From Escherichia coli (GTDB lineage: Bacteria; Pseudomonadota; Gammaproteobacteria; Enterobacterales; Enterobacteriaceae), in NCBI RefSeq assembly GCF_030384885.1, contig NZ_CP128615.1: a stretch of 64,000 nucleotides of DNA; one strand, given 5' to 3'. The notes below the pieces were generated by a model that saw only the letters and a program-made list of their open reading frames with translations, did not search any database and was not told the origin of the DNA. Numbering within the stretch: the first letter of the stretch is position 1; each line of letters starts with the position of its first letter. Shown here piece by piece: positions 1 to 27,678 of the stretch. The position numbers and the translations under genes were made by a program.

Positions 1-1149
1 TTTCCCTATGAATACTATTCCGTGCGGTTCAGCACCTTCTCCGGGGGGCATTTTGCCGGCTTCAGACGCTATCTGCGCCATCTGCTGTTAGACAGTGCAC
101 GCATCGATAACGAGCACGCCGCACAGGAATATACGCGCACAGTTTACAGCGTCAATGTGCCGGTAGCCGATCGGTACCGGCTTGAAAACAGTTACCGGCA
201 ACAGAAAATGCACTTCTGCACCCGGCATCTGTCAGCCATAAACGACACGCTGGATACGTATCAGTTTGGCGTGCGTTCCGGTGCTAAATCAGGTCTTGAG
301 GCGAATCTGGACATTACCGAGGACGGTATTTCCATTCGTCACCGTGGAAAAGGAAGGCAGTGCTTCATCAAAACAGAGTTTGCACTGCAGCGGCATCAGC
401 AGCAGGGAGAGCTCCACGCACTGTTGCTTGAGGAGCCGGAGAATCATCTCAGCCATGTCAGTATGAAGAGGCTGGTTAATCAGCTTGCAACTGAACGGCA
501 GACGCAGGTGTTTATTGCCACACACAGCAGCCATATCTCATCCCGCCTCGATCTGCGTAAGGCAATCCTCCTCGGGTCTGCCCGACCGGTACTGATGAAT
601 GAACTTTCCGCTGAGACTGCCGCCTTCTTCATGAAAGCACCGGACAATAATGTGCTGGAATTTGCGCTGGCCAGACGTGTGCTGCTCGTGGAGGGGGATG
701 CTGAGTTTATTCTGATCGAGGCCTTTTATCGCCGCCTGTATGGCAGGTCGCCGGAGGATGACGGGGTTCACATCATCGCTATCGGCGGAACGAGTTTCCG
801 TCGTTATCTTGAACTGGCCCGTCTTCTGGAAAATCGCGTCGCGGCCCTTCGTGATAATGACGGCAACTATCAGCAAAACTGCGATGAACGCTATGCTGAC
901 GTGCTTTGTTCCCGCTCCCGGGTATTTGCTGATCGCGATAACACCCGATCCACATTTGAAATCTGCCTGTATCAGGATAACGCTGGTCTGTGTGATGCGC
1001 TTTTCCGCGGAACACGCCGGACACTCACGGTGCAGGAATACATGCTGGCCAATAAGGCAGAAGCAGCATTCCGGCTGTTACAGCTGCACGCCGAAGAGCT
1101 GACAGTACCTGATTATATTCAGGAGGCACTGGCATGGATAAGAGAGTGA
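1..1149 (+). CDS. OLD-family ATP-dependent endonuclease (ABC-ATPase C-terminal part plus Toprim domain), 5'-partial at window edge; Gabija GajA-like
   Basis: Frame is open from base 1 (track ORF 22-1149). Translation has ATPase C-terminal motifs (LLLEEPENHLS, FIATHSSH) followed by Toprim signatures (LLVEGDAEFILIE, RDNDGNY). Stop overlaps the start of the next gene. Confidence 0.6.
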   Translation, partial: FPYEYYSVRFSTFSGGHFAGFRRYLRHLLLDSARIDNEHAAQEYTRTVYSVNVPVADRYRLENSYRQQKMHFCTRHLSAINDTLDTYQFGVRSGAKSGLEANLDITEDGISIRHRGKGRQCFIKTEFALQRHQQQGELHALLLEEPENHLSHVSMKRLVNQLATERQTQVFIATHSSHISSRLDLRKAILLGSARPVLMNELSAETAAFFMKAPDNNVLEFALARRVLLVEGDAEFILIEAFYRRLYGRSPEDDGVHIIAIGGTSFRRYLELARLLENRVAALRDNDGNYQQNCDERYADVLCSRSRVFADRDNTRSTFEICLYQDNAGLCDALFRGTRRTLTVQEYMLANKAEAAFRLLQLHAEELTVPDYIQEALAWIRE

Positions 1150-2156
1150 TATTTGCGGTTGCCGGCTCGGGCAAGACCACGCTGCTGATACAGCGGTTGA
1201 GTGAGGACCGGCGGACGCTGATCCTGACCTTCACCGTGAATAATGAAGCGCATCTCCGGGCGCAGATTATCAGACGTTTTGGCTTTATCCCGGACGGGAT
1301 CAGGGTGATGACCTGGTTTGAGTTTCTGCACGGTTTTTGCTTCAGGCCTTTCCTGCAGGAGCAGCTGGCATCGCGTGGGCTGAGCTTCGACCAGCCCCCA
1401 CCCAGAATACCGCGCACGAATGCCCGGCATTATCAGGATCCCGCCGGACGGCTGTATCACCGGAGGCTCGCACACTTACTCACAGCCCGGGGGCTGCTGC
1501 CAGATATCCGTACCCGGCTTGCCCGTTACTACGATGAACTGCTTGTCGATGAAGTCCAGGACTTTGCCGGACATGACTTTAATTTTCTGCTGGAGCTCTG
1601 CCGCGCGGAAATCACTGTGCTCTGTTGCGGCGATTTTTATCAACATACCTTTGATACAAGCCATGACGGCAACGTTAATTCAACGCTGCACGATGACATT
1701 ACGCGATATGAGGCCCGCTTCGACGCAGCAGGTTTCACGGTTGACCGGGACACGCTCAACCGGACATGGCGTTGCTCAGCTTCAGTGTGCGAGTTTATCA
1801 CCGGACAACTGAACATCCGTATCGCTGCCCATGGGATACATGCCACCCTGATTGAAACGATCACAGATGCAGAGCGCACAGCCACCCTGCACGCCGATAA
1901 TACGGTGATTAAGCTCTTCTATCGTGAACATCACCGTTACGGCTGCTATTCCATGAACTGGGGCGTCAGTAAAGGGCTCGACCACTTTCAGGATGTCTGC
2001 ATTGTGATGGGATCTTCCCACTGGAAGCTTCTGACCCGTCAGGAACTGGCAGCCCTTCCACCGTCGTCCCGTAACAGGCTGTACGTGGCATGCTCACGGG
2101 CGCGCGGCAACATTTATTTTGTTCCCGAAATTCATCTGCGCCGATTCCGGAACTGA
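1134..2156 (+). CDS. UvrD-like superfamily 1 helicase core protein (short, 340 aa), GajB-like partner of the OLD nuclease
   Basis: Walker A AVAGSGKTT, motif II LLVDEVQDF, GDFYQ, C-terminal LYVACSRARGNIYFV; start overlaps upstream OLD gene by 16 bp (operon). Confidence 0.55.
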   Translation: MDKRVIFAVAGSGKTTLLIQRLSEDRRTLILTFTVNNEAHLRAQIIRRFGFIPDGIRVMTWFEFLHGFCFRPFLQEQLASRGLSFDQPPPRIPRTNARHYQDPAGRLYHRRLAHLLTARGLLPDIRTRLARYYDELLVDEVQDFAGHDFNFLLELCRAEITVLCCGDFYQHTFDTSHDGNVNSTLHDDITRYEARFDAAGFTVDRDTLNRTWRCSASVCEFITGQLNIRIAAHGIHATLIETITDAERTATLHADNTVIKLFYREHHRYGCYSMNWGVSKGLDHFQDVCIVMGSSHWKLLTRQELAALPPSSRNRLYVACSRARGNIYFVPEIHLRRFRN

Positions 2157-2445
2157 GTCAGCTGCTTCTCAGTCGGGCACAATTCAGAAATAAAGCTGTA
2201 TGGCCAACGATGTCACTTCAGGCTGGAAAAGTGCGGATCCGGTTTTGCCTTTTTTCGGATCTGAGCGGGAAAAGTGAGAAACCAACATAGGTGTAACATA
2301 TCCATATGCCGGGCATCTGCATAGGCAAAGCATACGCATATACCTACCATCTGCATATGTAACACCTATACAAGCCGGGCTTGCAGGCATATACTTCACC
2401 TATGCGGGAATACTCCCTGGCACACTCAGCATATGAGGAAAAACC

Positions 2446-2676
2446 ATGCGCACAGTTTCGATATTTAAAAACGGCAATAACCGCGCCATCCGTCTGCCCC
2501 GGGACCTGGATTTTGATGGCGTCAGCGAGCTGGAGATCGTCCGGGAAGGGGACAGCATCATTCTGCGTCCCGTCCGGCCGACCTGGGGCTCGTTCGCGCA
2601 GCTGGACAGGGCCGATCCGGACTTTATGGCGGAGCGTGAGGATGTGGTCAGCGATGAAGGACGCTTTGAGCCATGA
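2446..2676 (+). CDS. vapB: VapB/VagC antitoxin (AbrB/SpoVT-type)
   Basis: 76-aa protein MRTVSIFKNGNNRAIRLPRDLDFDG...; 4-bp overlap with downstream PIN toxin gene; palindrome-rich promoter region upstream (2280-2445). Confidence 0.9.
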   Translation: MRTVSIFKNGNNRAIRLPRDLDFDGVSELEIVREGDSIILRPVRPTWGSFAQLDRADPDFMAEREDVVSDEGRFEP

Positions 2677-3089
2677 AGAAAACCTGGATGCTCGACACCA
2701 ACATCTGCTCGTTCATCATGCGCGAGCAGCCGGCAGCGGTGCTGAAGCGCCTGGAGCAGGCGGTGCTGCGCGGTGATCGCATTGTGGTCTCGGCCGTGAC
2801 GTATGCCGAGATGCGCTTCGGCGCCACCGGCCCGAAGGCCTCGCCGCGCCATATTCAGCTGGTCGACGCGTTCTGCGCGCGCCTCGATGCCGTCCTGCCC
2901 TGGGACCGCGCCGCGGTGGACGCCACGACGGACATCCGGGTGGCGCTGCGCCTAGCCGGGACGCCGATCGGCCCGAATGACACGGCCATTGCCGGGCACG
3001 CCATCGCGGCGGGCGCCATCCTGGTGACGAACAATGTGAGAGAGTTTGCGCGGGTCCCGGGCCTGGTGCTGGAAGACTGGGTGAAATAA
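2673..3089 (+). CDS. vapC: VapC/VagD PIN-domain toxin
   Basis: 138-aa PIN protein MKKTWMLDTNICSFIM... with conserved acidic residues; coupled to vapB. Confidence 0.9.
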   Translation: MKKTWMLDTNICSFIMREQPAAVLKRLEQAVLRGDRIVVSAVTYAEMRFGATGPKASPRHIQLVDAFCARLDAVLPWDRAAVDATTDIRVALRLAGTPIGPNDTAIAGHAIAAGAILVTNNVREFARVPGLVLEDWVK

Positions 3090-3130
3090 TCCCGTAATAA
3101 TTTCCGTGACGGAGACGACAGACATGAATG

Positions 3131-3192
3131 GGCTTTGTTGAATAAATCGAACTTTTGCTGAGTTGAAGGATCAGATCACGCATCCTCCCGAC
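3131..3192 (+). mobile_element. IS903 left-end fragment (62 bp)
   Basis: Identical to the first 62 bp of the intact IS903 copy at 23487 (GGCTTTGTTGAATAAATCGAACTTTTGCTGAG...); ends abruptly at the start of the IS3-family element. Confidence 0.8.
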
Positions 3193-3292
3193 TGGATTTG
3201 CCCCTATATTTCCAGACACCTGTTATCACTTAATGGAGTGACCCCGAGCCCGTAGACAAATCTGCCCTATAGTTTGAGCATAGGAGGAGTCT

Positions 3293-3577
3293 ATGGGCAC
3301 ATCACGTTTTACCCCTGAATTTAAGGAAGAGGCCGTCCGCCAGATCACCGAGCGGGGCTATTCTATTGCTGAAGTATCTGAACGGCTCGGCGTGTCGGCG
3401 CACAGCCTATATAAATGGCTCCGGGCTGTTAAGCCTGACAACAGTGGACAGCAGGCACAGGATTTACTGGATGCCAGAACAGAAATTCTCAGGCTGAAAG
3501 CACAGCTTAAACGCACTGAGGAAGAGCGGGATATTCTGAAAAAGGCAGCGCGGTACTTTGCAAGGGAGCCCGACTGA
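3293..3577 (+). CDS. IS3-family transposase OrfA (HTH)
   Basis: MGTSRFTPEFKEEAVRQITERGYSIAEVSERLGVS... typical IS3 OrfA with leucine-zipper-like C-terminus. Confidence 0.85.
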   Translation: MGTSRFTPEFKEEAVRQITERGYSIAEVSERLGVSAHSLYKWLRAVKPDNSGQQAQDLLDARTEILRLKAQLKRTEEERDILKKAARYFAREPD

Positions 3578-3624
3578 AGTATCGCTTTATCAACGATCAC
3601 CGTGAAATCTGGTCGATCGTTACA

Positions 3625-4212
3625 ATGTGTCGGGTCCTTAAGGTTGCCCGTGCCGGATTTTATGTCTGGCTCCATAACCCTGTATCTGCCGGAGAAAAGG
3701 ATAACCAGCGACTGCTGGAACTCATCCGCGACTCCTATACGCTGAGTGGTGGAGTTTACGGTTATCGCAGGGTTCATGGCGATCTTCGCGAAATTGGCGA
3801 AGTGTGCAGCAGAAACCGGGTTGCCAAAATCATGAGGAAAAACAGGATTCAGGCTATACATGGTTATAAAGTGCCACGCGGGAGCCGGGGACGACCGTCA
3901 CTGATAGCGCCTAATCACGTGCGGCGTGAATTTACTGTAGTGAAGCCCAATCAGGTGTGGGTCACCGACATCACCTACATCCGCACCTGGCAGGGCTGGC
4001 TGTACCTGGCAGTGGTTATCGATCTTTTTGCCCGTAATGTGGTGGGCTGGTCGATGAAGCCGACACTGTCGCGCGAGCTGGCACTGGATGCGCTGCTGAT
4101 GGCGGTCTGGCGACGTAAACCTGAAGAAAACGTCATTGTGCACAGCGATAGTAATAATGCCGATGTCAGTCTTTACCACCACTTAGTTTGCCGTTTAACC
4201 AGATTGGTGTGA
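3625..4212 (+). pseudogene. IS3-family transposase OrfB, 5' part, disrupted after the HSD motif by an IS110-family insertion
   Basis: Translation matches IS3 OrfB up to VIVHSD (about 4149) then runs into unrelated sequence and stops. Confidence 0.75.
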
Positions 4213-5525
4213 TTACTGATGCAGTGAAGACCTTCCCGCATCCTGACTCACACAGCGATCGACCTTTTGTGTCCTGCCCTGGACCCGTCGGTTGCCGGAA
4301 GCGCCTTCATGCGAGGCATCTCCTCACCGATGCGCGTGACTCAAGAAGGGCCTGACGGCTTGTCTCGTTACTGTCCTGTCCGGGTTATCTGTCTGGAGAT
4401 TCAACTCTGTTTCCTCACAGGAGCTCTGTCATGGTTGATAAAGTTACCGAAGCTGCCGTTGTGGGTGGCGTGGATACACATAAAGATTTGCACGTTGCCG
4501 CTGTCGTAGATCAGAACAATAAAGTCCTTGGGACTCAGTATTTCTCCACAACACGACAAGGTTACCGGCAGATGCTGGCATGGATGACCTCGTTTGGGAC
4601 ATTAAAGCGAATTGGTGTTGAGTGCACAGGTACCTATGGTTCCGGTTTGCTTCGTTATTTTCAGAACGCCGGGTTAGAAGTTCTTGAGGTGACTGCTCCA
4701 GACCGGATGGAGCGACGCAAACGGGGTAAAAGTGACACAATTGATGCTGAATGTGCCGCTCATGCAGCATTCTCAGGCATCAGGACAGTTACTCCCAAAA
4801 CGCGTGATGGCATGATTGAGTCCCTGCGGGTATTAAAAACTTGCCGAAAAACAGCAATATCAGCCCGCAGAGTCGCTCTCCAGATTATCCATTCAAATAT
4901 TATCTCTGCCCCGGATGAATTACGTGAACAGCTCAGAAATATGACGCGCATGCAGCTCATCAGGACCCTGGGTTCCTGGAGACCTGATGCCAGTGAATAC
5001 CGCAATGTAACCAACGTTTATCGCATTTCATTAAAGTCCCTTGCCCGACGCTATCTCGAGTTACATGACGAAATCGCTGATCTGGATGTCATGATTGCGG
5101 CAATTGTCGACGAGTTGGCACCTGAGCTGATTAAACGTAATGCTATCGGATACGAAAGCGCTTCACAGTTGCTGATCACTGCCGGAGACAATCCTCAACG
5201 GTTAAGATCAGAATCAGGATTTGCGGCACTGTGTGGTGTCAGCCCGGTCCCCGTTTCTTCTGGAAAAACGAACCGTTACCGACTTAATCGTGGTGGAGAT
5301 CGTGCTGCAAATAGTGCACTTCACATCATCGCCATCGGACGCTTACGAACTGACGCAAAAACAAAGGAATATGTCGCCAGGCGTGTAGCCGAAGGACATA
5401 CAAAAATGGAAGCGATACGCTGTCTAAAGCGATATATCTCCCGCGAAGTTTACACGTTACTGCGCAATCAAAACAGGCGGATCAACAGTATCCCGATAAC
5501 AGCTTGACTCTTAGAAGGGCGTCCA
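4150..5525 (+). mobile_element. IS110-family insertion sequence nested inside the IS3-family orfB
   Basis: About 1.38 kb insert between HSD and QGSQY codons of the IS3 orfB; encodes an IS110-type transposase; no obvious terminal inverted repeats, as usual for this family. Boundaries approximate. Confidence 0.6.
4431..5507 (+). CDS. IS110-family transposase
   Basis: 358 aa, N-terminus MVDKVTEAAVVGGVDTHKDLHVAAVVD... (DEDD-type RuvC-like fold family signature). Confidence 0.85.
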   Translation: MVDKVTEAAVVGGVDTHKDLHVAAVVDQNNKVLGTQYFSTTRQGYRQMLAWMTSFGTLKRIGVECTGTYGSGLLRYFQNAGLEVLEVTAPDRMERRKRGKSDTIDAECAAHAAFSGIRTVTPKTRDGMIESLRVLKTCRKTAISARRVALQIIHSNIISAPDELREQLRNMTRMQLIRTLGSWRPDASEYRNVTNVYRISLKSLARRYLELHDEIADLDVMIAAIVDELAPELIKRNAIGYESASQLLITAGDNPQRLRSESGFAALCGVSPVPVSSGKTNRYRLNRGGDRAANSALHIIAIGRLRTDAKTKEYVARRVAEGHTKMEAIRCLKRYISREVYTLLRNQNRRINSIPITA

Positions 5526-5589
5526 GGGCAGTCAGTATGGCAGTGATGACTGGCAGCGGTTCTGCCGGGCCAATAATCTGGTACCGAGC

Positions 5590-5802
5590 ATGAGCCGTCG
5601 CGGCAACTGCTGGGATAATGCAGTGGCAGAATCGTTCTTCAGTTCACTCAAAAAAGAGCGCATCAGGAAGCGGATATACAAAACCCGGGACATGGCCCGG
5701 GCGGATATTTTCGATTATATTGAAGTGTTCTACAACCGGGCCCGGCGCCACAGTCATCTCGGCGGCGTCAGCCCGGAGGCCTTCGAAAAGGCCTCGCAGT
5801 GA
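5590..5802 (+). pseudogene. IS3-family transposase OrfB, 3' part (frame open from about 5527: GSQY...SMSRRGNCWDNAVAESFF)
   Basis: C-terminal DDE-region motifs of IS3 transposases resume immediately after the IS110 insert. Confidence 0.75.
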
Positions 5803-5909
5803 GGACAGAAACTGTCTACCGGAGCGTGGTCACTCCACATTTAAAGAAACGAGCTTTGGTAAACATACCTGTAATGACTCCATAAAATGGCGCGTCAAAC
5901 GACACCTAA

Positions 5910-7985
5910 TCAATTAACCCCAAGCGCCTTAAACACGGCATCGACGGGGTCTGCATAAAAGCTGATCTGGAATTTTGAGAACAACTCAGCAGGAACCGTT
6001 GGAATATCTGAGGCTGAGGCCATTGGGAGCAAAATACGCTTTGCGCCACTGTCCATAGCTAACTGAAGACTGCCTGCAAGATCTTGAACAGGATTGACGA
6101 CACCACCTAAAGTCATCTCACCCAAAACAACCATCTGCTCTTGAATCGGTCGGTTCATCAGAATTGAACAGAACGCAATTAATGCAGCGAGCGATGACTT
6201 TGTACTTGGCCCCGTATTGTGGAGCTCAACAACATGGAGGTGATACTCATGATCAGAAAACTTCGCCGACGCACTGATTCTATTCAGGTTACCTTTGAAA
6301 TAATCAAAGCCAACACGCACAGCTTCTTTCGCTGCGGTATTCGAACCAAGGCCAGACACTGAGTGTTTACCAGAACCAGCCATCATCTGGGTTTCATAGC
6401 GATATAACCCAAGCTGCCCAGTGCTTCCCTGAGTAACCAAGTGCACGACACCAGCGCGAGGTAAGCCCTCAGGAATTAGCTTGCTGCCACCTTGTTCCGG
6501 TACATTGATGAAGAATTCTTCTAATGAATCGTTATCGATGTAGCTAAAGTGCACATCAAAAAATTCCATTCCGCCAAGCTTTTTCAATTGCTCTTTGACT
6601 CTACGTCTAGTTTCCAGCGCATAGGTCAGGCAGGCTCTTACATCATCTTTTGTGTACTGTGCGTCGGGGTGTAGTAGCTTTAACAAGCCCGAAACAGTTC
6701 TGCGTACAGCAATTACATCACGCTGATTAAGGTTATTACCGAGTTTGAAGAACTTATCGATAGCATCCGCAAAACTTCTTTTGCGCATTTCACGCATGTA
6801 TTCAGCAAGATAGTCTGTGATTAATCCGTAACTATTGGTGAAAAACTCAGGACGCATCTTCGGTATTTCCCATCCAGGAATATAGGAATGGAAACGGTCA
6901 AAAAAAGCAGTGTCAATCATGGCTTCAGGAAAAGGTGCCAACAGATGACTGGTCTTCACCAGTGTCTCAACGCTTTGATTGATGTTACCGACGAATACCA
7001 TGGAAGCCTTCGCTTCGATTGAATCACGACCACGGGCAAAAGACCCTGACGCCATATAATCTTTCATTATTTGGACGCCGTCTTTGTCTTTAAAGTTAAT
7101 ACCCGCTACTTCATCAAAGGCGACAACATCCCACATTCCGACCAACCCAACTTGGCGCGAGCTCATGTTATAGAACAAGTTCGCCACAGTTGTTTGTCCG
7201 CCCGAGACAAGCAATGAGTTTGGTGAGCACTCCTTGTAGACATGGCTTTTACCTGTCCCTCTTGGTCCGAGCTCACAAACGTTGTAGTTGTTTTCAACGA
7301 ATGGGATCATACGAGTGATAAGATGCCATTTCACCCGATGCTCTAAGTTGGTTGGCTCCATACCCACGGAACGAAGCAACACATCCATCCACTGATCGGT
7401 ACTAAAATGTCTTCTGGTTGAAAACACCTCATCCATGTTCATGGACGGCATTTGTATCGGTTTTAAACTCATAATGGAGAAAGGTGATGTCTTCTGACCT
7501 TCCTCAAAGAAATACTGGACGGTAATAATGCACCAGATGCCGCCAGTTAATAATTTTTCGTTGTCTTGTACTATTTTGGTCGGTACAAGGGCATCCTTGA
7601 TACCCAGGTTCGACAACGCAGCTTCATAGACGTCTTTTTTCTGGTTGAGCTTAACGCTTACTTTGTCGATGATTTTAAACGTGCCGCGTTCACGGATCAG
7701 TGACTTCACTTTCTCCGCTTCATCTGGTCGGACATAGTTCTCAGCCAAGATTTTTTTTACATTATCAAGGCCTTGCATTACAACTTCGTCGTCATCGGAC
7801 GCACAATACATGCCTAGTAAATACTCAAGCACATAGACAGGGACGTTAGCGCCTTCTTTCAATTGCTTTGTCAGATCTTTTCGAACGACACGGCCTTTAA
7901 AATATTGGTTGAGCAATGCGTCTAAATCGGCGCTTTGCATCTGATTTTTTTCGTCTTTATGATCTTGTGAAAAATCAGTTGTCAT
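5910..7985 (-). CDS. brxL: BREX protein BrxL (Lon-like protease domain protein)
   Basis: 691 aa; last gene of a brxA-brxB-brxC-pglX-pglZ-brxL syntenic block; Walker-like GPRGTGKSH and C-terminal Lon-protease-like region. Confidence 0.85.
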   Translation of the reverse strand: MTTDFSQDHKDEKNQMQSADLDALLNQYFKGRVVRKDLTKQLKEGANVPVYVLEYLLGMYCASDDDEVVMQGLDNVKKILAENYVRPDEAEKVKSLIRERGTFKIIDKVSVKLNQKKDVYEAALSNLGIKDALVPTKIVQDNEKLLTGGIWCIITVQYFFEEGQKTSPFSIMSLKPIQMPSMNMDEVFSTRRHFSTDQWMDVLLRSVGMEPTNLEHRVKWHLITRMIPFVENNYNVCELGPRGTGKSHVYKECSPNSLLVSGGQTTVANLFYNMSSRQVGLVGMWDVVAFDEVAGINFKDKDGVQIMKDYMASGSFARGRDSIEAKASMVFVGNINQSVETLVKTSHLLAPFPEAMIDTAFFDRFHSYIPGWEIPKMRPEFFTNSYGLITDYLAEYMREMRKRSFADAIDKFFKLGNNLNQRDVIAVRRTVSGLLKLLHPDAQYTKDDVRACLTYALETRRRVKEQLKKLGGMEFFDVHFSYIDNDSLEEFFINVPEQGGSKLIPEGLPRAGVVHLVTQGSTGQLGLYRYETQMMAGSGKHSVSGLGSNTAAKEAVRVGFDYFKGNLNRISASAKFSDHEYHLHVVELHNTGPSTKSSLAALIAFCSILMNRPIQEQMVVLGEMTLGGVVNPVQDLAGSLQLAMDSGAKRILLPMASASDIPTVPAELFSKFQISFYADPVDAVFKALGVN

Positions 7986-8001
7986 GTTTCACCTCAGCGC
8001 C

Positions 8002-14342: not shown

Positions 14343-14357
14343 ATGATCTTGCGCCTC

Positions 14358-16121
14358 TTATTCTGTCTCTACGCTGTTTGCGGGTTGTAATGCGGTTCTA
14401 ATGCGGGCAAGCAGTGTTTCCTGACGCTCGCGGTAAAAGTCCATAAACTGGTTTAGTTGTTCAGGTAATGATGTTATGGCTTGCGATTGCAGATGTGCTT
14501 GTCTTGCATTCACATCAGGCCACTGCTGCGCATACCATTCATGGGGCATTTTTTGCCGCTTCTGGTTGTTGATTGTCCCTTCCAACAGTTGAAGGTTTGG
14601 CAGCTTGTTAGATGCCTCGATGAGTTCATCTAGCTGTTCAGCTGGGACACCAACTTTTGCAAGCTTGTTACGCGTAAACAAACCTTTGGGGTAAATGTGG
14701 TCCACATGAAAGTGTCGTGAAAAATCGAATCCTGGGAACAACAAAGTCAACAAGGCAAAGGTACGCGGATTACCATAATCCAACTGCGCTAGTTCACTAA
14801 TTTCCTCTGGGTCAAAGCGCAACGATTTACCACGCTGTTGCATGGTCGCTTCAATTTTCGCTAGCGGGAAACCCGTATCACCCGATTGTTTAATGTCTGA
14901 GCGAAGCATAGTAAGCAGGGTATCCAAACCACTTCCCCAGATGCCTGACGCTTTCAACAACGACCTAATGAGCCAGTTTCTGATGCATTCTCTATCGACC
15001 GCATATTCAACCCTAGAAAGGTAGCTTGCCGTTAACTTTCGGTGGTGCAGGTAATAGGCTAACGGGAGGATGGCACTTGTTGCTCTGAGGTTTTGTGCAT
15101 TAAAACCAAAACTTGCCAGCAACTGCATTGAGAGCAATAACGCATCACGAATTGGCGTCCAGTTCTTTTCGAGAATCGCCATATTTTCCTTGTTAAAGTT
15201 CTCAACCTTAAAGCCCACGCTACCGATGTCAGAGAGCATTAAGCCTGCTTTTAAAACGAGATCTTTTGATACGTTGAATCCATCACCAACACGGTTCATC
15301 TCATCCACTAAGGCATGAATTTCTTCACGGGCATCTAACGAGCTCCACTGCGCTACGGCTATTGAAAGTAGTAAGTCTGAGTAGGACAAAGTAGTGCCGC
15401 CGCTATTCATGCGGATAAAGATATTCAGAACACGTTCAAGGCTCTGATCACTTTCTTCGTAAAACGAAATCTTATCTTTGTCATGGATAGTTCGATACAA
15501 GTGACGAAGAGTTGAGCGAGCCTCTTTGCGTTGCTCCGAGCTCAACCTAGCATCATCAGCAACTTCATCGATAAGTGCATCTTCTTCCTCTTCCATGATC
15601 CGGCCTACACGGAACCAGTATTGTTCAGATGCATCCAAAGAGGCTTTATCGTCGGTTAGGAACTCAAAGTCATACATCGACCCAGTTTCTAAGTCGGGCT
15701 GGCTTAACAGATTTAAGTGAAGCCTGCGCACTGGGAAGGCGTCATCATTGCTCCACCATTTACCTGTCAGCTTCCACGCAAATGAGCCGCGTAGGCCGAT
15801 GTTCAAAGCGGTAATCCGCTGCTGTCCATCTAGGACGGCAATGAACTCACGCTCTGGTAACTGAGTGACATTTTCACAATGGTAGTTATCTCGCTCATGG
15901 TAATGCTGCATGAACTGATAAAACTGATAGCTATGCCGGTTCTCTGGTTTTATCTTCCAGAATAGAAAGGTCCCAAACGGGTAACCTTGCAACAGGCTAT
16001 CAAATAGACGACAGATCTGTTCTGGTCGCCATACAAACTCTCGCTGGATGGCCGGTAACAGGTATTCCTGCTCAGCAACCTTGTCGAGTAATGATCTTAT
16101 TGTTCCACCCGCTTGATACAT
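14358..16121 (-). CDS. brxU: GmrSD-family type IV restriction endonuclease (DUF262 plus DUF1524), BrxU-like, embedded in the BREX locus
   Basis: 587 aa; N-terminal DUF262 motifs (LPAIQREFVW, DGQQR), C-terminal DUF1524 His-Me finger motif (HVDHIYPK); sits between brxC and pglX. Confidence 0.75.
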   Translation of the reverse strand: MYQAGGTIRSLLDKVAEQEYLLPAIQREFVWRPEQICRLFDSLLQGYPFGTFLFWKIKPENRHSYQFYQFMQHYHERDNYHCENVTQLPEREFIAVLDGQQRITALNIGLRGSFAWKLTGKWWSNDDAFPVRRLHLNLLSQPDLETGSMYDFEFLTDDKASLDASEQYWFRVGRIMEEEEDALIDEVADDARLSSEQRKEARSTLRHLYRTIHDKDKISFYEESDQSLERVLNIFIRMNSGGTTLSYSDLLLSIAVAQWSSLDAREEIHALVDEMNRVGDGFNVSKDLVLKAGLMLSDIGSVGFKVENFNKENMAILEKNWTPIRDALLLSMQLLASFGFNAQNLRATSAILPLAYYLHHRKLTASYLSRVEYAVDRECIRNWLIRSLLKASGIWGSGLDTLLTMLRSDIKQSGDTGFPLAKIEATMQQRGKSLRFDPEEISELAQLDYGNPRTFALLTLLFPGFDFSRHFHVDHIYPKGLFTRNKLAKVGVPAEQLDELIEASNKLPNLQLLEGTINNQKRQKMPHEWYAQQWPDVNARQAHLQSQAITSLPEQLNQFMDFYRERQETLLARIRTALQPANSVETE

Positions 16122-16137
16122 AGTTATCCGTTGCCTC

Positions 16138-19100
16138 TTACTTAATTCTTACTCGGTCGCCAGCTTTGACCGCAGCAATCAGCTGCTCTCTTAAAGCGGC
16201 AAGATAGGCATCAACTTCGGCTTCACTTTCAATGAATCCGGTTGTTACTGACTTAGCCATGGCATCGGTTGAGTTAATCGTTACGGTACGTTTTGCAACC
16301 GGCTGTGGCTGCACTGGTTCAGAGGCTGGCTCAGGTGCTGGAGCTGCTTTACCGGCTTTCGCTGCTTCCTCTTCGCGTGTCTGCTGTTCGAGTTCACGAC
16401 GTCTTTGCTCAGCTTCAGCTTTTTTGCGTTGATCTTCGATAAAGCCATTCAGCAACTCATAGGCTTCGTCCTCGTAACCTTCCGCTTCAGTTTGCTCACT
16501 GATAATTTGTGGTATTGAAGAGGTCGCTTCAATACGCTGTCTGCACATTTGTAACGGGCGCAGTGCTTGGTTCTGTAATTCAGACGGTGCATGAGCTTCA
16601 GCTAGCGCTTCTTTTACACGTCCGATGCGCAGATCAACACGCTCTAAGGCATGAGTGCGTTTTTCTTCAACCAATGTTGAGTTAATTTTTGCCACCTGCT
16701 CGATAAGCGGATTAATGTGGCGCAGCTGCTCATACGGCGAGGGCATATTGTAAATGCGTTCTAATTCAGTGAGCGCTTTTAATGCTTCACTGTCTTTTTC
16801 TAACGCAGGTCTATTGGCCTTAAACTTCTCGTTCAATGCGCCAGCAAGGGCTTGCCAAGTTTGAAATTGGCTATTGTAGAAGTCATCAAGATCCTCAAAG
16901 TCCTCAGCAAACTCTTCAAGGGCATCAGCGTTTTCTAAGAATCGGGTGATAAGAGCGAAGCTTGAAGTTTGCTCAAGAATACCCGCGACCAATGCAAGAC
17001 CATCGTCAATTTGAGATTTACCTGGGAAATGGCCTGTCTGTGACTTGGTTCTGAATGATTTAAGCTCTTCATTCCAAGCCAGTAATTCATCGCGCACTAA
17101 TTCGTAGAGCTCCTTTTCACCAGAGCCGGTAAAGGTTTTTGAAAAGATCTCTTTAACAAGACCAGCAGCCTTTTTGATTTGGCGCTCGTCATGTTGCCTG
17201 ATTTTATGTACACGGATCTCACCGCGTTTACGCACGCTGGTAAACGGCTCGTAAGCTTTTTTCAACGCCAGATCTGTGCCCTGGGTACTAAAAGATAACT
17301 TTCCAGCCAAGCCCAGCCTTGCAGTGAGCAATAAGATTTCATTGTCTGGCCAGCCATACGGGCGCTTGCCGAAGTGGGCAACGATGTCACGTAAGTAAAC
17401 AGGCTCATTACGCTCGACTTTTAGCGTTACGTACTGCTCAACCTCACGCGTAGCTTCTGGGTTACATTCATCCGCTTGAAGATCCAGTCCAATCTGAGCA
17501 ATATCATCAGCAACAAGTACGGCCTGTAGCTCACGCAAAACTTCACCAGGCGTCGCCTTGAGCATGTTCAATTTAGCGAAGGTGTTTTCGATAACGTATT
17601 TGTATGCTTCTTCGACGATGGCACTTGGCGTTGCTGATTTCTTCGGTAGTTTTGTGCCGATAGCGTAAACGTCAGCCTCTGCAAACAAAGCTTCAAAATC
17701 CGTTCTTAAGCGTTTTTCACGCTCAATATTTTCCATCTGCTTTTCGCGGAGAAGGTGTTCTTGCTCTGGTCGCTGTCCTGAATTTTGTTTTAAGAATCGG
17801 TCAGTTTTTATAAAGGTTGTCAGGTCATCCCAAAGACGTTTATGTTCGCCCAGCTTGACGAGCACGCACCCATCAGCCTCAAGCGTATGATTGATGCAGG
17901 CTTGATCGTGGGAGTAATTTTCAAAGTGCGAATCCAAAGGTGAAATGACTTTAATGACTAGATCTTCCAGCGTGGTGCCATCTTTTGGATGACCATTGCA
18001 AAAACGGCTCACCGCAAAGTCTTGCTTATTAATCGGGTATCGATAGGCACGATTACCTTTCAAAATACCGTCAAATACGATTGCTGAAAGCTTGTTAGAG
18101 ACCTCTGACATTTCAACGTCAGTGTGGCGGATCTCGTTTTCAATCTCTTTTTCTTCGTTGGTCAGGAAGATAAATTCATCACCATTACGCGCAATCAGCA
18201 ATTGGCGTTCAAGACGATTCAAGCTCTCTTCAATTTGTTTACGCAGCGCAATTTTATCTGCATCGATTCGATCAATTGACAGCGTCACAAGGTTGTCTAG
18301 TGTGCTTTTGACAACGTCCACATAACGGATCAAGAAAAGAGTTTTTAGAATCTTGCCATCGAATTCTGTTAAGGAATCCAACTCACAGGCTTGGTCAATC
18401 GTTCGCTTAACCGCTGGCTCCAAAAAGCTTTCAATCGGTGCATAGAAACTGTAAAACGGGATTAACACATCAAGGCCAGAGTCCTTCATCTGTTTTGCAG
18501 CTGATTGGAAAGCATCAAGTAATGAACGCTCACCCATGGCTAAGTGCTTACCCGTCGCGCCTTTTGTTCGAATTGACTCAAACACTTTTTGAACCAGCGT
18601 GTAGTGGTAAGGCACAAACGGATAGTTGTCCACGAAAGACGGAGCGTCGGTGTAGCCCTTTAGAGACGCAGTTGTCGTTTTATCAAATGTCAGCTGGTTA
18701 CGAAGAATGTCGCCCTTTTCAGCAAACACATCGATGAGGTGTGTACGAGCTTCTTCCGTTTTGGACAACAAACGCTTTTGAATAACTTCCGAGGTATTCG
18801 AGCTCGACAGCTGCAAGCGGGTACTAAAACGCCCTTGAATTTTAGAGAAGTCCTCGCCATCGCGCTTATCCATACCACCAATGGCAGCATCAATGTCTGC
18901 CTGAGAGGTAACAACGACCCAAGCTCTGCCACCACAATATGTGCCAAGATCTTCAGTAATGGTCTGAAGCTTCAACATCATTTGTGTGTTCTTACCGATA
19001 AACTGACCGACTTCATCGACTAAGAAAAGAAGGTTACGATCTCCAGTTCGATCTAAGTATTCATTAACCCACTTACAGAAGTTTCGGATATCTAGCGGGA

Positions 19101-19815
19101 AATTGTTTTCAACCTGTTCAACCCACGCTTTGGCAGACTCTAATGATTGCTCACTGGCATGAGCGAGTGCTTCTGAAAGTTCGTCTCGATAGAAGTCATA
19201 GGCGTCACGCTCCTTTTCCCAAGTTGATTGAGTCAACTCAGCAAATTTGTCCTTGAAAGACATGTATTGATTACGCTTATCAAGCTCGCGTTCTAAATGC
19301 GCAATGTGAGGAAAATCAGCGCAGTATCCTACACGCTCATTAAAGACTTTGAGGAAGACCTTAAGAATGGCATTTTCTCGGTCATCCGTATTGGCTCGTG
19401 AATCGATGTTAAAAAGAATAACATCAGTGTCTTTGGTAACAGCGTTTTGGATATCGGCCAACAGCATGGCATCGTTGATTTTGTCTTTAAAAAACTCAAA
19501 TGCTTGACGGCCTTGGCCATCCTTTTCGACAGACTTATTTTCGAGGAGGTAAGACAAAATTTTCAGGAAGTGAGACTTACCCGAACCAAAGAAGCCAGAG
19601 ATCCACACACCAATTTTTCCTGACATTGATGCGCCACTTTGCGTCACAGATGGAACGTAAGCCTCAAAGAAAGCGCGAAAATGTCGATCTAGCTCTCGGG
19701 TTACAACATACTCATCAAGTTCGACATACACACTGTCATTGTCTTTCTGTTCCGCTTTAACAACGCCGTTAATATCACGCGTCAACTTCTTGGAAAAAAT
19801 CTGTTCAATTTTCAT
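16138..19815 (-). CDS. brxC: BREX ATPase BrxC/PglY
   Basis: 1225 aa; Walker A GFFGSGKSHFLK near N-terminus; position after brxB. Confidence 0.85.
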   Translation of the reverse strand: MKIEQIFSKKLTRDINGVVKAEQKDNDSVYVELDEYVVTRELDRHFRAFFEAYVPSVTQSGASMSGKIGVWISGFFGSGKSHFLKILSYLLENKSVEKDGQGRQAFEFFKDKINDAMLLADIQNAVTKDTDVILFNIDSRANTDDRENAILKVFLKVFNERVGYCADFPHIAHLERELDKRNQYMSFKDKFAELTQSTWEKERDAYDFYRDELSEALAHASEQSLESAKAWVEQVENNFPLDIRNFCKWVNEYLDRTGDRNLLFLVDEVGQFIGKNTQMMLKLQTITEDLGTYCGGRAWVVVTSQADIDAAIGGMDKRDGEDFSKIQGRFSTRLQLSSSNTSEVIQKRLLSKTEEARTHLIDVFAEKGDILRNQLTFDKTTTASLKGYTDAPSFVDNYPFVPYHYTLVQKVFESIRTKGATGKHLAMGERSLLDAFQSAAKQMKDSGLDVLIPFYSFYAPIESFLEPAVKRTIDQACELDSLTEFDGKILKTLFLIRYVDVVKSTLDNLVTLSIDRIDADKIALRKQIEESLNRLERQLLIARNGDEFIFLTNEEKEIENEIRHTDVEMSEVSNKLSAIVFDGILKGNRAYRYPINKQDFAVSRFCNGHPKDGTTLEDLVIKVISPLDSHFENYSHDQACINHTLEADGCVLVKLGEHKRLWDDLTTFIKTDRFLKQNSGQRPEQEHLLREKQMENIEREKRLRTDFEALFAEADVYAIGTKLPKKSATPSAIVEEAYKYVIENTFAKLNMLKATPGEVLRELQAVLVADDIAQIGLDLQADECNPEATREVEQYVTLKVERNEPVYLRDIVAHFGKRPYGWPDNEILLLTARLGLAGKLSFSTQGTDLALKKAYEPFTSVRKRGEIRVHKIRQHDERQIKKAAGLVKEIFSKTFTGSGEKELYELVRDELLAWNEELKSFRTKSQTGHFPGKSQIDDGLALVAGILEQTSSFALITRFLENADALEEFAEDFEDLDDFYNSQFQTWQALAGALNEKFKANRPALEKDSEALKALTELERIYNMPSPYEQLRHINPLIEQVAKINSTLVEEKRTHALERVDLRIGRVKEALAEAHAPSELQNQALRPLQMCRQRIEATSSIPQIISEQTEAEGYEDEAYELLNGFIEDQRKKAEAEQRRRELEQQTREEEAAKAGKAAPAPEPASEPVQPQPVAKRTVTINSTDAMAKSVTTGFIESEAEVDAYLAALREQLIAAVKAGDRVRIK

Positions 19816-19833
19816 TCGGGAGGCTCCCTGCTC

Positions 19834-20427
19834 TTAATTTTTTTTACCGTCTTCAGGCACAAGCTTGAAGGCGCGATAGTAGTTTTTAGATTCGATCATG
19901 CCGAAAGGATGCAAATCCCTTCCGCTATATTCACCCGGATAGAAAAGCACTAATGGCGTGCTACCCATAACGTCTTGCAGAGCACTAAGTAACTCATGTC
20001 CTCGGATAAGAGGCCACGCACTGCCTAAGCCTGACAGCAACACAAACTCAAGTTCTGATGGCTTATATTTGTCCGCGATATACCTTGCCACTTTCTCTTG
20101 GCTCAGAGGCCCGGCTAGTGTTTTTCGAAGGCCATCAACACCGACTTGCAATTCACGCTGGCAAGCTCGGTCGAAAAGGCCTCGCTCCTCAAGCATATCT
20201 ATCAAGACTTCAAAAATATTGAGATGGACAAAGCGGTAACCACGCTTGTTGAGTTTTTCGTCAACGTGCTTAATGTGCTCTCGTACAAGCAGTTCATACT
20301 TGGCTGGATAGTCAAATACCCAAAATCCAATTTCATTGCCCAAGCCATCGTTTTTCAAAAACTTAGGGCTTTCAATTCGTTCCAGTATCAGATCAAGCCT
20401 GGTCTGAAGAGCCTTCATATTGTGCAC
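19834..20427 (-). CDS. brxB: BREX protein BrxB (DUF1788)
   Basis: 197 aa; overlaps brxA by 13 bp; size and position as in type 1 BREX. Confidence 0.8.
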   Translation of the reverse strand: MHNMKALQTRLDLILERIESPKFLKNDGLGNEIGFWVFDYPAKYELLVREHIKHVDEKLNKRGYRFVHLNIFEVLIDMLEERGLFDRACQRELQVGVDGLRKTLAGPLSQEKVARYIADKYKPSELEFVLLSGLGSAWPLIRGHELLSALQDVMGSTPLVLFYPGEYSGRDLHPFGMIESKNYYRAFKLVPEDGKKN

Positions 20428-21014
20428 TCCATTACCTCAATCAAATCTTCCCGGCCCAGACGAACTAACCAGTCTTTAACTTCTGGCATTAGGTAAACAG
20501 GTTGTATTTTCTTTGTCCTGCTATCACTCAGGTAGCCACTATCAACCAGTGCCTTAATTGCGTTGTTACCCATTTTTTTGACAGTTGAGTCAGAAAAACC
20601 GCCAAGCTCAGCATATGCCCGCACTCTCGTGTCATAAAACTCAGACCATGCATCAGCGGTTAAAGAGGGTTTATAGGTGCGACGAGCTTCGGCTAAGGTA
20701 AGTCGCATAAAATAAGCGACAACCGGAGAATGAATGAGTAATGACATCATCAGCATTTGGACATAGGCACGTTCACTCGCGGCTAAAAGATCAGTCATAA
20801 ACTCATCACCCAGGCCTTCAATACGCCAACGGATTGTTCTGGCATAACGAATAGCCGTCTGACCGGATTTTTTCTGAAGAACATTTTGCTCAACGATCAG
20901 CGACTTCCACTCATCTTCTGGAAGTTTTTTCAATAGCGATTCTGCGATTATTCTAGATTCAGTTATCAATAAACTGCCTCCGATAAGATCGCCTAAATAT
21001 TCTTTTATATTCAT
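20415..21014 (-). CDS. brxA: BREX protein BrxA (DUF1819)
   Basis: 199 aa; first structural gene of the BREX block. Confidence 0.8.
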   Translation of the reverse strand: MNIKEYLGDLIGGSLLITESRIIAESLLKKLPEDEWKSLIVEQNVLQKKSGQTAIRYARTIRWRIEGLGDEFMTDLLAASERAYVQMLMMSLLIHSPVVAYFMRLTLAEARRTYKPSLTADAWSEFYDTRVRAYAELGGFSDSTVKKMGNNAIKALVDSGYLSDSRTKKIQPVYLMPEVKDWLVRLGREDLIEVMECTI

Positions 21015-21023
21015 AAATTCATC

Positions 21024-21950
21024 TCACGATTCGCTATATCCAGGAGCGAGTGCAGCATTGTCAACGCCGTATAGTGCTTCTGGATTTTTAAGTGCTAAAT
21101 GGAACTCTCGCCCATTGCTCTTACAATTCTTTGAACAATCGATATTCCATAAACGCAGTAAATATCCAGCGAACGCAGCTCTTATCTCTACACGCAACCT
21201 ATTGTTTTCCATTGCGTAGTCCATCGATACAGCTTCTGGATGTGCTAGTTTTGGATGAGGTATCAGCTCTAGCTCAACGATTCGGTTCCATTGCTTATCC
21301 CACTGAAGAGTCTCAACTTCGTCGTTAACCTCATCCTCTAACAACTCAACTTCACTTATTCTGGTTAAAACAAAATCCCTAAATTCTCTAAGCTTTCTAT
21401 CGAATGCTCGGACATGCCATCTCAAGCCATTGTCAATCAGGGTATGAGGAACTATTTGCCTGCTCCCATGACCACTCGACAATGAGGTGTACTCAATATT
21501 AATCACAGCGCGCTTATGTATGGCTTCACTAATAGCCGCTACAACTTCCAATTTCGGCTTATTGAGATGGAATGGTGCTTCACAAGCCATAGGTGGCCTG
21601 GCCTTGCCAAGAAAGCCATCACCGAACCCTTGGCTTATCGTCGCAAGAGTTCGAACAACGTCATAATCAAACAACGGCTGGAATGCGCTCGTCTTCAAGT
21701 GCACTCTGCGCTTTTCGTCATACATAACGTTGTTAGGAGCCAACTCTTTGTACCGCGCAAAATCTTGTGTTGCCACAGACGGCGCTACGCTAAATCGCTC
21801 GGTTAAATAACTACGCCCAGCTTCACCTTTAAATAACAAAGTGAAATCAATATGAGCGAGTCGTTCTCTCTGTGCTTGGCTAAGCTCTTCAAGTCCAGTG
21901 TTGTCTTGCACTGTCAGCCTCTCAATCCATCTGGGACAAGCCCTAATCAT
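21024..21950 (-). CDS. brxR: WYL-domain transcriptional regulator BrxR (wHTH-WYL)
   Basis: 308 aa; N-terminal winged-HTH-like segment and WYL-like core (QIVPHTLIDNGLRWHVRAFD); directly upstream of brxA. True start may be an internal Met. Confidence 0.7.
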   Translation of the reverse strand: MIRACPRWIERLTVQDNTGLEELSQAQRERLAHIDFTLLFKGEAGRSYLTERFSVAPSVATQDFARYKELAPNNVMYDEKRRVHLKTSAFQPLFDYDVVRTLATISQGFGDGFLGKARPPMACEAPFHLNKPKLEVVAAISEAIHKRAVINIEYTSLSSGHGSRQIVPHTLIDNGLRWHVRAFDRKLREFRDFVLTRISEVELLEDEVNDEVETLQWDKQWNRIVELELIPHPKLAHPEAVSMDYAMENNRLRVEIRAAFAGYLLRLWNIDCSKNCKSNGREFHLALKNPEALYGVDNAALAPGYSES

Positions 21951-22269
21951 TTAAAACTAGGAAGCCATCGATTGAATGCCATCAAGCAACCTACTTTTTT
22001 TCATTAGGTATCATAGTATCAACAAGTCGTCTTGTTGGCTATAAAAATTGGCTTGACGTTGTTCGAATGTTTCTTTTCTGGCCTTGATAGAAGCTCACGC
22101 TGGAATGCCAACTGACGCAATTCATTCTCTCGAACACGCCTAGCAACTTCTGCCTGGGCTGGTAGCTGATCTTGACCCTCCATCTCCGAACAGCTTTTGT
22201 ATCTTAAGTTAACGATGTCCGCTGCCGCCGGTATTCCCTCGGGGAGTGATATCCCAGCGCGCTGTGCGG

Positions 22270-22545
22270 GTGGCTTCCATTTCCATCAGATGTCCTTCCT
22301 GCTCCGCTACTGAAGGCGTGGTGCGTAACGGCAAAAGCACTGCCGGACATCAGCGCTATCTCTGCTCTCACTGCCGTAAAACATGGCAACTACAGTTCAC
22401 TTACACCGCCTCTCAGCCCGGTACGCACCAGAAAATCATTGATATGGCCATGAATGGCGTTGGATGCCGGGCAACCGCCCGCATTATGGGCGTTGGCCTC
22501 AACACGATTTTACGTCACTTAAAAAACTCAGACCGCAGTCGGTAA
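22270..22545 (+). CDS. insA: IS1 InsA
   Basis: [43 protein letters not shown]...; track ORF 22246 start extends beyond the IS1 fragment and is not used. Confidence 0.85.
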
Positions 22546-22967
22546 CCTCACGCATACAACCGGGCAGTGACGTCATTGTTTGCGCGGAAATGGACGAACA
22601 GTGGGGTTATGTCGGCGCTAAATCACGCCAGCGCTGGTTGTTTTACGCGTATGACAGGATACGGAGGACGGTTGTGGCGCACGTATTCGGTGAACGCACG
22701 TTGTCCACGCTGGAGCGTCTTCTGGGCCTGCTGTCGGCCTTTGAGGTCGTGGTATGGATGACGGATGGCTGGCCGCTTTATGAATCACGCCTGAAGGGAG
22801 AACTGCACGTTATCAGCAAGCGATATAAGCAGCGCATTGAGCGGCATAACCTGAATCTGAGGCAGCATCTGTCAAGGCTGGGCAGGAAGTCACTGTCGTT
22901 CTCAAAATCGGTGGCGCTGCATGACAAAGTCATCGGGCATTATCTGAACATAAAACACTATCAGTAA
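22464..22967 (+). CDS. insB: IS1 InsB (expressed as InsAB' by frameshifting)
   Basis: 167 aa [27 protein letters not shown]... Confidence 0.85.
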
Positions 22968-23174
22968 GTTGGAGTCATTACCTTCTTTGCCGCCGGACAT
23001 TGTCCGGCGCAACACCAAACCGGTCTGGCGGGCTGAGCCAATCCCGCAGGCAAATTCAGCCCTTACCGGATGGCTCAGCCCCCTACTCATTGGAATTGGA
23101 TATTCAACTTTCAGGGGCTACTGCGCCAGACTTCAGTCTTTAAAGTGATTGACTTAGCGCCTGGCACACTCAAT

Positions 23175-27672: not shown

Positions 27673-27678
27673 TCAAGC

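Follow-up and report, generated by a model that had tools for sequence, protein, structure and literature searches.

A type 1 BREX island and a Gabija-like gene pair meet at the probable seam of an IncR–IncF plasmid cointegrate of Escherichia coli

Contig NZ_CP128615.1 of the Escherichia coli assembly GCF_030384885.1 was analyzed over a window of 64,000 nt, the first 22 kb of which contains a Gabija-like gene pair (gajAB), a vapBC module and a type 1 BREX system with an embedded brxU gene. A first-pass annotation had interpreted this arrangement as a mobile defence island whose content is shuffled by insertion sequences (IS). Comparison with related plasmids indicates that the 22-kb stretch is most probably the place where two plasmids were joined into a cointegrate rather than one island. 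Window positions 2245–58402 (about 56 kb) represent a complete IncR plasmid, while the DNA on both of its sides, 1–2244 and 58404–64000, belongs to an IncFIB/FIC plasmid; in all likelihood, the BREX/BrxU block of the former came to lie beside the Gabija-like pair of the latter by plasmid fusion at rfsF. The IncR and IncF circles would have been fused by one reciprocal exchange within the 28-bp rfsF-type sites preceding each vapB, ResD-type site-specific recombination being the most likely route. After such a fusion, gajAB would lie upstream of the IncR vapBC at a distance of 290 bp and 3.7 kb away from BREX. Every component is already in the literature, as is the mechanism of fusion, and only this specific cointegrate is new to the databases searched. 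The statements on modules concern gene content and not a statistical pattern, and a chance test is not applicable to them.

The IncF origin of the outer parts of the window is evident from comparison with the IncFIB/FIC plasmid p14EC033d. Only 2 of 2244 positions differ in the left part, and the right part shows 99.89% identity to the p14EC033d DNA located behind gajB, as far as a point just before the RepFIB gene. Between them, segments 2236–25207 and 45673–58933 match the E. coli AR_0011 plasmid NZ_CP024857.1 at 99.3–100%, and positions 2246–24543 are 100% identical to pPK8568-156kb. The IncR backbone follows the order repB with 36-bp iterons, parAB, umuCD, a group II intron, resD, rfsF and vagCD. 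The repB iterons comprise 10.4 copies of the 36-bp unit, exactly as described for IncR plasmids (Calia et al., 2022; PMC9412624). In the 41 plasmids of that study, rfsF–resD and vagCD are followed by dIS102–dIS2–ISEc15, with ISEc15 interrupted by ISKpn60 at one fixed position. The window shares with this locus the order of elements, the fixed interruption of ISEc15, the location of vagCD straight after rfsF, and the iterons. It differs in the foreign IncF DNA located between the backbone-side rfsF (58403) and vagCD (2446); few IncR plasmids with foreign DNA between rfsF and vagCD have been reported (Calia et al., 2022; PMC9412624). As the maintenance module vagCD, vapBC belongs to the IncR backbone and is not island cargo, since the published IncR layout puts vagCD after rfsF and before the fixed IS scar (PMC9412624).

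The two junctions were read from an alignment of five sequences together with a listing of the sites, and both fall in a 28-bp palindromic site located upstream of vapB on both parents. The rfsF site was described on F and Klebsiella plasmids as a 28-bp sequence, AGATCCGNAANNNNNNNNTTNCGGATCT, consisting of two 10-bp inverted arms and an 8-bp spacer, at which reversible fusion of whole plasmids was observed, the junction falling within the spacer (Xu et al., 2021; PMC8299605). Fusion at rfsF via ResD-type recombination has been shown experimentally by others. Written as left arm, spacer and right arm, the IncR parental site is AGATCCGGAA-CTGCCTTT-TTTCGGATCT and the IncF parental site is GGATCCGGTT-TTGGTGGT-TTTCGGATCT. 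The two sites of the window (sites A and B; Table 1) carry the hybrid spacers TTGCCTTT and CTGGTGGT in place of the parental CTGCCTTT and TTGGTGGT, as expected of a reciprocal exchange in the spacer. The DNA to the left of each site derives from one parent and the DNA to the right from the other. All diagnostic positions beyond spacer position 3, among them two single-nucleotide polymorphisms (SNPs) in vapB and about 35 differences over the following 180 bp, follow the right-hand parent. This pattern of parent switching at both sites places the crossover between positions 1 and 4 of the 8-bp spacer, and reciprocal hybrids with a crossover in the spacer are the signature of rfsF replicon fusion. 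Site B fits the pattern AGATCCGNAA-N8-TTNCGGATCT exactly and is the only strict match in the window (being palindromic, it is found on both strands). The layout of arms and spacer, the integration of a whole plasmid between two sites and the location of the junction within the spacer are all like those of the rfsF system of Xu et al. (2021). Unlike in that system, an IncR plasmid is paired with an IncFIB/FIC plasmid of E. coli, one left arm is degenerate, the spacers are heterologous and the nearby resD is frameshifted.

Related plasmids were compared using a two-part probe, consisting of 3 kb of brxU–brxC and 1.5 kb of gajAB, in a search of PLSDB. The full BREX part was matched by 58 PLSDB plasmids, each at one place, and the gajAB part is absent from all of them; gajAB without BREX occurs in about 1,740 PLSDB records. 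No PLSDB record holds both modules in one place, and no place covers 80% or more of the two-part probe; the best PLSDB match to this stretch covers only positions 2236–22400. Window positions 1–8000 do not occur in one place in any of 5,426 complete E. coli genomes. For hybrid junction A, PLSDB contains no exact match, the best matches being the parental types at 90–91% identity, and the exact junction B is likewise absent from PLSDB, with relatives at 96–97%. Neither PLSDB nor the set of 5,426 E. coli genomes contains the exact cointegrate. Scattering of these genes over related replicons had been named in the first-pass annotation as the observation that would count against an island, and the outcome of the comparison speaks against a recurrent one.

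It is thus improbable that all three modules make up one mobile defence island assembled and shuffled by insertion sequences. Most points of variation around BREX do lie at IS ends (3131, 5523/5535, 22166 and 22270), the GC content of the BREX block is foreign, BREX is flanked by a complete IS903 and, in direct orientation with it, a 62-bp IS903 end, and the block is found on IncR, IncF, IncX-like and large hybrid plasmids. However, no IS sequence is present from gajB to vapB, the Gabija-like pair and BREX share no replicon among the 58 BREX plasmids, vapBC belongs to the IncR backbone, and the gajB–vapB junction is a reciprocal rfsF crossover with its partner junction 56 kb away. The separation of the modules only by IS debris, as originally proposed, does not apply to the 290-bp gap between gajB and vapB, which contains the 28-bp rfsF-type site and the vapBC promoter and nothing derived from an IS. 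The single-island view is largely refuted for the Gabija part. What stands of it concerns the BREX/BrxU block, which is discrete, lower in GC, shared by plasmids of several Inc types and genera, and bounded by IS; the Gabija-like pair and vapBC are not in that island.

Among the possible routes of joining, site-specific fusion at rfsF was ranked first over homologous recombination and misassembly, because a RecA crossover would be expected in the 325 bp of vapB homology and a misjoin would not give reciprocal hybrid sites. A RecA-dependent fusion through homology of the two vapBC regions, which are 90% identical over about 530 bp, could have used the approximately 325 bp of near-identical vapB sequence common to both copies, and IncR hybrids are documented to arise by homologous recombination. 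The crossover, however, maps to 2–3 bp inside the 28-bp site, to the left of all good homology and with a flanking identity of only 7+2 bp, while the vapB SNPs and the divergent 180-bp promoter stretch keep with the right-hand parent in both copies. Homologous recombination within vapBC was rejected as the joining route on account of this location, and a RecA-dependent fusion is considered very unlikely. Least probable of all, and hardly to be expected, is an assembly artefact joining two co-resident plasmids in silico via the repeated vapBC region: assemblers can be misled by a 0.5-kb repeat present on two plasmids, PLSDB lacks the exact junctions and a sequencing error could account for the 2-bp indel in resD, but a repeat-induced misjoin would switch in the high-identity part and leave the sites parental, whereas both sites are reciprocal hybrids with the same 2–3 bp switch in the least similar part of the repeat.

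Several observations weigh against fusion of an IncR and an IncF plasmid at rfsF. Site A and the IncF parental site do not follow the strict rfsF pattern, their left arm being GGATCCGGTT and not AGATCCGNAA, with three deviations. The parental spacers differ at 5 of 8 positions, and spacer mismatch normally hinders exchange by tyrosine recombinases. In the IncR resD gene, an insertion of two bases (TG) near 56293 causes a frameshift ahead of the catalytic His/Tyr region, with loss of the catalytic C-terminus, so the recombinase either came from elsewhere or was inactivated afterwards. This insertion could lock the cointegrate or be a sequencing error, and a second resD may lie on the IncF part beyond the window. 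With 64 kb of the replicon in view, the rest of the IncF part is inferred. The IncR and IncF “parents” are database proxies and not true ancestors, and resolution products of a cointegrate would show the same pattern as such “parents.”

If fusion at rfsF is accepted, gene adjacency on a multidrug-resistance plasmid can mimic a defence island while really reflecting replicon fusion. An IncF plasmid appears to have taken up, as a whole, a non-conjugative IncR plasmid that carries BREX and BrxU as well as tet(A) and strAB. This would give the IncR plasmid a conjugation route and unite on one replicon three anti-phage systems with different targets. Such combined systems are relevant to phage therapy against strains of this kind. 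A more general proposal, which must be regarded as doubtful, is that rfsF-type sites rather than IS are the places at which defence and addiction cargo repeatedly docks on enterobacterial plasmids. An rfsF-like palindrome is located directly upstream of each vapBC copy in every relative examined, and in the IncF lineage the vapBC–gajAB block adjoins an rfsF-type site. If true, ResD-type recombination could swap defence modules or fuse replicons, pooling complementary systems such as Gabija, BREX and BrxU, and the degenerate arm, the heterologous spacer and the frameshifted resD could lock the fusion in place.

Table 1. Location of the features identified in the 64,000-nt window, with the evidence for each.
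Feature	Coordinates	Strand	Evidence and remarks
gajA-like gene, last 382 codons	1–1149	+	C-terminal ATPase part and OLD-type TOPRIM; 5′ part before base 1
gajB-like gene, putative short SF1 helicase, 340 aa	1134–2156	+	Overlaps gajA by 16 nt
rfsF-type site A, hybrid	2235–2262		GGATCCGGTT-TTGCCTTT-TTTCGGATCT; left arm from IncF, rest of the spacer and right flank from IncR
vapB (= vagC), antitoxin	2446–2676	+	NF040493, 92.5 bits (cut-off 60)
vapC (= vagD), PIN-domain toxin	2673–3089	+	VapC models, E=6e-35 and 6e-32; 4-nt ATGA overlap onto vapB
IS903-group left-end fragment (dIS102 in PMC9412624), 62 bp	3131–3192	+	100% identical to 23487–23548
IS2 end fragment (presumed name), 41 bp	3193–3233	+	Sequence read directly
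ISEc15 (IS3 family), 1230 bp without insert	3234–5837	+	Inverted repeats TGGAGTGACC...; NF033516 matches; ends read directly
IS110-family element, 1374 bp	4150–5523	+	Transposase 4431–5507; nested in ISEc15 orfB; NF033542, 195 bits (cut-off 140)
brxL (Lon-like)	5910–7985	-	TIGR02653, 1347 bits
pglZ	8002–10674	-	TIGR02687, 945 bits
pglX, methyltransferase and specificity factor	10674–14342	-	NF033452, 1528 bits
brxU, GmrSD-family type IV restriction enzyme	14358–16121	-	Between brxC and pglX; PADLOC HEC-05, 776 bits
brxC	16138–19815	-	NF033441, 1221 bits
brxB (DUF1788)	19834–20418	-	PADLOC BrxB, E=6e-71; pPK8568 annotation
brxA (DUF1819)	20415–21014	-	PADLOC BrxA, E=5e-108
brxR, WYL-domain regulator	21024–21950	-	PDB 7QFZ (E. 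fergusonii BrxR), 646 bits over 295 aa; PADLOC WYL
IS3-family terminal fragment	22167–22269		Between BREX and IS1; conserved right limit of the BREX block
IS1 without about 53 bp of its left end	22270–22982	+	713 bp, against the 766-bp full copy at 46596–47361
Complete IS903-group element	23487–24543	+	Direct orientation with the 62-bp fragment at 3131; IS903 family annotation in pPK8568
resD, IncR tyrosine recombinase	56121–56899	-	Aligned over 779 bp with the intact gene of AR_0011, with a single gap of 2 bp; break in the open reading frame table
rfsF site B, reciprocal hybrid	58403–58430		AGATCCGGAA-CTGGTGGT-TTTCGGATCT; left arm from IncR, rest of the spacer and right flank from IncF
Second vapB and first 32 vapC codons (IncF copy)	58611–58933	+	99.9% identical to p14EC033d; open reading frame table; IS21 matches

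The three modules of the first-pass annotation were all recovered by profile searches within 22 kb, at about the positions it had given them, and the IS903 fragment (a 62-bp end), the IS3-family element with a nested IS110-family element (ISEc15 with a 1374-bp insert) and the truncated IS1 on the right, which lacks its left end, are also present. That annotation had not included brxU, brxR, the 41-bp IS2 end and the IS3-family end at 22167.

The type 1 BREX system is complete and all its genes, occupying positions 5910–21950 on the minus strand, are intact. The six core genes brxA, brxB and brxC together with pglX, pglZ and brxL form one operon-like cluster with matches to NCBIfam and PADLOC models far above cut-off. 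The product of pglX has the features of an N6-adenine methyltransferase, with the sequence IANPPYMG, containing the NPPY motif, at residues 509–516. BrxU is identical to the crystallized BrxU (PDB 7P9K) at 584 of 587 positions. It contains both a DUF262 NTPase and a DUF1524 HNH domain, as evidenced by the presence of the motifs CRLFDS, LDGQQR and VDHIYP; the motifs described for BrxU/GmrSD are RLFDS and DGQQR in DUF262 and DHIYP in the DUF1524 HNH domain (PMC8565348). The first gene of the defence cluster encodes BrxR, a protein with a winged helix-turn-helix, a WYL and a dimerisation domain, all 295 residues of which were aligned to the known structure. Positions 5838–22166, comprising the BREX/BrxU block, have a GC content of 0.39–0.47 vs. 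0.52–0.59 in the flanks. The block is present in 55–58 PLSDB plasmids of several Inc types with more than 96% identity, and these plasmids span Escherichia, Salmonella, Klebsiella, Raoultella, Enterobacter and Moellerella.

This BREX/BrxU block is the published pEFER-type phage defence island, bounded by IS ends. As in pEFER of Escherichia fergusonii ATCC 35469, the gene order is brxR-brxA-brxB-brxC-brxU-pglX-pglZ-brxL, the gene lengths correspond, the backbone is IncR, and a 3′ fragment of ISEc15 adjoins brxL. The DNA is about 97% identical to pEFER over 5616–11442 and 12793–22166, and homology stops at 22166. Upstream of brxR, an IS3 end and a truncated IS1 are found in the window, whereas pEFER carries brxS/brxT. 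The second difference concerns the central cassette of pglX (11448–12797; residues 516–965; GC 0.39), which is swapped, with no DNA match across 11442–12793. The two PglX proteins are 74% identical overall, with values of about 38% in the centre and about 97–98% at the ends, as estimated from the BLASTP alignment. The same PglX allele, WP_061350060.1, is encoded by AR_0011 and pPK8568. PglX is the specificity factor of BREX (PMC11341690), so that with a swapped cassette a motif other than the GCTAAT of pEFER is expected; judging from the protein sequence, the motif methylated by this PglX is unlikely to be GCTAAT. Prediction of the motif from solved PglX/BrxX proteins of known specificity was ruled out, the central cassette being too distant from them (374–396 bits over 445 aa).

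The pEFER island was found to provide BREX-dependent protection with GCTAAT methylation, and BrxU was found to protect against phages whose cytosines are modified (Picton et al., 2021; PMC8565348). By analogy with established work on near-identical proteins, the BREX system of the window would be expected to methylate a 6-bp motif set by PglX and to block unmethylated phage DNA, BrxU would be expected to cut phage DNA with modified cytosines, and BrxR to regulate the locus. Type 1 BREX is characterized by a non-palindromic 6-bp motif that becomes hemi-methylated and by exclusion of phages through PglX. In the AR_0011 plasmid, the nearest IncR relative, a PADLOC defence candidate, PDC-M26, encoding a 724-aa ATPase and an 867-aa nuclease, is located beyond the IS903 and IS3 elements right of BREX (144–4924 of the examined stretch); the window is without PDC-M26.

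The gajA frame is open from base 1 to 1149 and corresponds to residues 139–520 of a 520-aa protein. It matches the PADLOC GajA models (E=6e-73) at profile positions 155–531 of 532; the start of the match at position 155 indicates that approximately the first 138 codons lie before base 1. The full-length 520-aa homologue of p14EC033d, which differs by 2 nt in the shared part, comprises an ABC/AAA_15-type ATPase fused to an OLD-family TOPRIM nuclease (Pfam AAA_15 and OLD-like TOPRIM PF20469, E=1e-16), and it matches the GajA of Bacillus cereus in PDB with E=5e-10. The gajB product matches PADLOC GajB (E=1.7e-47), and its translation contains the helicase motifs I, II and VI as GSGKT, DEVQD and VACSRARG. 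Its matches to Pfam UvrD are weak (E>0.005), and that to the solved GajB is non-significant (E=0.7). The pair has no NCBIfam match, and PADLOC and Pfam were needed for its identification. Like Gabija of B. cereus VD045, it consists of two overlapping genes, for an ABC-type ATPase/OLD-type TOPRIM nuclease and then a putative SF1/UvrD-like helicase. Unlike there, GajA has 520 aa instead of 578 and GajB 340 instead of 494, and relatives of the pair always have their own vapBC in front. On this sequence evidence, “Gabija-like” appears a fair label, short of proven membership of Gabija. By analogy, this ATPase/TOPRIM nuclease and helicase would be expected to act as a further anti-phage nuclease system; no experimental test of this plasmid subtype was found in the literature on Gabija of IncF and Klebsiella plasmids.

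A conserved vapBC–gajAB block is present in p14EC033d and in Klebsiella IncF plasmids, and at least 1,583 PLSDB records, representing IncF-type plasmids, hold most of window positions 1–2450. The IncF vapB/vapC copy of the window is about 90% identical to positions 2252–2768. Its vapC is cut off by an IS21-family fragment (58992–60417), and the toxin gene of the IncF copy is thus destroyed. An Rfam match to the small RNA UptR is located in the IncF part at 61192–61283.

In the IncF plasmid NZ_CP014073.1 of K. quasipneumoniae (976–10937 of the examined stretch), a strict rfsF site upstream of pifC is followed by a CBASS cyclase and 2TM effector, and these by a variant rfsF site, vapBC, gajAB and an HNH/type IV-like nuclease. 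The surroundings of rfsF are thus rich in defence genes. Downstream of gajB (9560–9590), a different palindrome, GGTTCCGG...CCGGAACC, occupies the place of the degenerate rfsF left arm GGATCCGGTT of the E. coli IncF lineage and could be a diverged site or a terminator.

The IncR vapBC is a typical VapBC module, in which a small antitoxin gene overlaps a PIN-domain toxin gene (2673–2676). The vapB product is identical to WP_001261276.1, a protein encoded in IncR plasmids. The best models for VapC are tRNA(fMet)-specific families, but the scores are below the equivalog cut-offs (120 vs. 140 bits and 110 vs. 143 bits), so that its RNA target is only inferred. VapC has no match to any PADLOC defence model. 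An AbrB-type antitoxin and a PIN toxin with a 4-nt overlap are likewise found in the VapBC/VagCD/MvpAT modules, and a role of vagCD in plasmid maintenance was described for IncR plasmids (PMC9412624). By analogy, this VapBC would be expected to stabilize the plasmid by post-segregational killing.

The nested IS elements between vapC and brxL, comprising dIS903/IS102, dIS2 and ISEc15 with its IS110-family insert, are an old inherited scar of the IncR lineage. The 41-bp fragment at 3193–3233 is presumed to be an end of IS2, to judge from the inverted repeat of that element. An IS2 remnant was described for the same IncR locus (PMC9412624), from which the name was likewise taken. In ISEc15, orfA is located at 3293–3577 and orfB is split into two parts, 3625–4149 and 5524–5802; an intact copy bears the PGAP name “IS3-like element ISEc15.” The empty site of the IS110-family element, with the sequence ...CACAGCGAT/CAGGGCAGT... 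(the slash marks the insertion point), is found exactly in pHNTH9F11-1. The element is probably ISKpn60, a name taken from PMC9412624.

On the other side of BREX, the sequence 22167–22269 alone was matched in about 1,700 plasmids, where it is annotated as “IS3 family transposase,” and in p1_115069 it is located at the end of an IS3 element. Variation among relatives falls at the IS end 5616 as well as at those named above, which indicates that IS activity shaped the surroundings of BREX. Transposition of BREX as cargo of an IS903 composite transposon was rejected: the left copy is a 62-bp stump cut by IS2, neither IS2 nor IS903 resumes to the right of ISEc15, and no target-site duplication was found. 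Mobilization of BREX between two copies of one IS3-family element was discarded as well, the 22167 fragment, ISEc15 and the IS1222-like element at 24544–25207 all being different elements that share only a 79-nt stretch at 94%. An IS1222-type frameshift element lies at 24927–25044. The Rfam scan found nothing in window positions 1–22270.

The DNA that separates the truncated IS1 from the complete IS903 (22983–23486; about 0.5 kb) contains a fragment of a formamidase gene (amiF), according to the AR_0011 annotation, and is a stray chromosomal remnant. Homology to AR_0011 stops at 25207, inside an IS3-family element, where the sequence of a tet(A)/Tn3-family transposon starts. The resistance region (25208–42062) carries tet(A)/tetR, a Tn3-family transposase and a methyl-accepting chemotaxis gene in a Tn1721-like arrangement, as well as another transposon of the Tn3 family and the genes aph(3'')-Ib/aph(6)-Id (strAB). 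The group II intron is located next to umuD, with domains D1–D4 at 49052–49277 (Rfam) and a reverse transcriptase open reading frame at 47460–48470. At positions 45673–46245, a 37-bp unit is repeated in tandem 15.5 times, with 93% matches. In AR_0011 this array adjoins a truncated replication-initiator gene, and it probably represents the iterons of a defunct second replicon.

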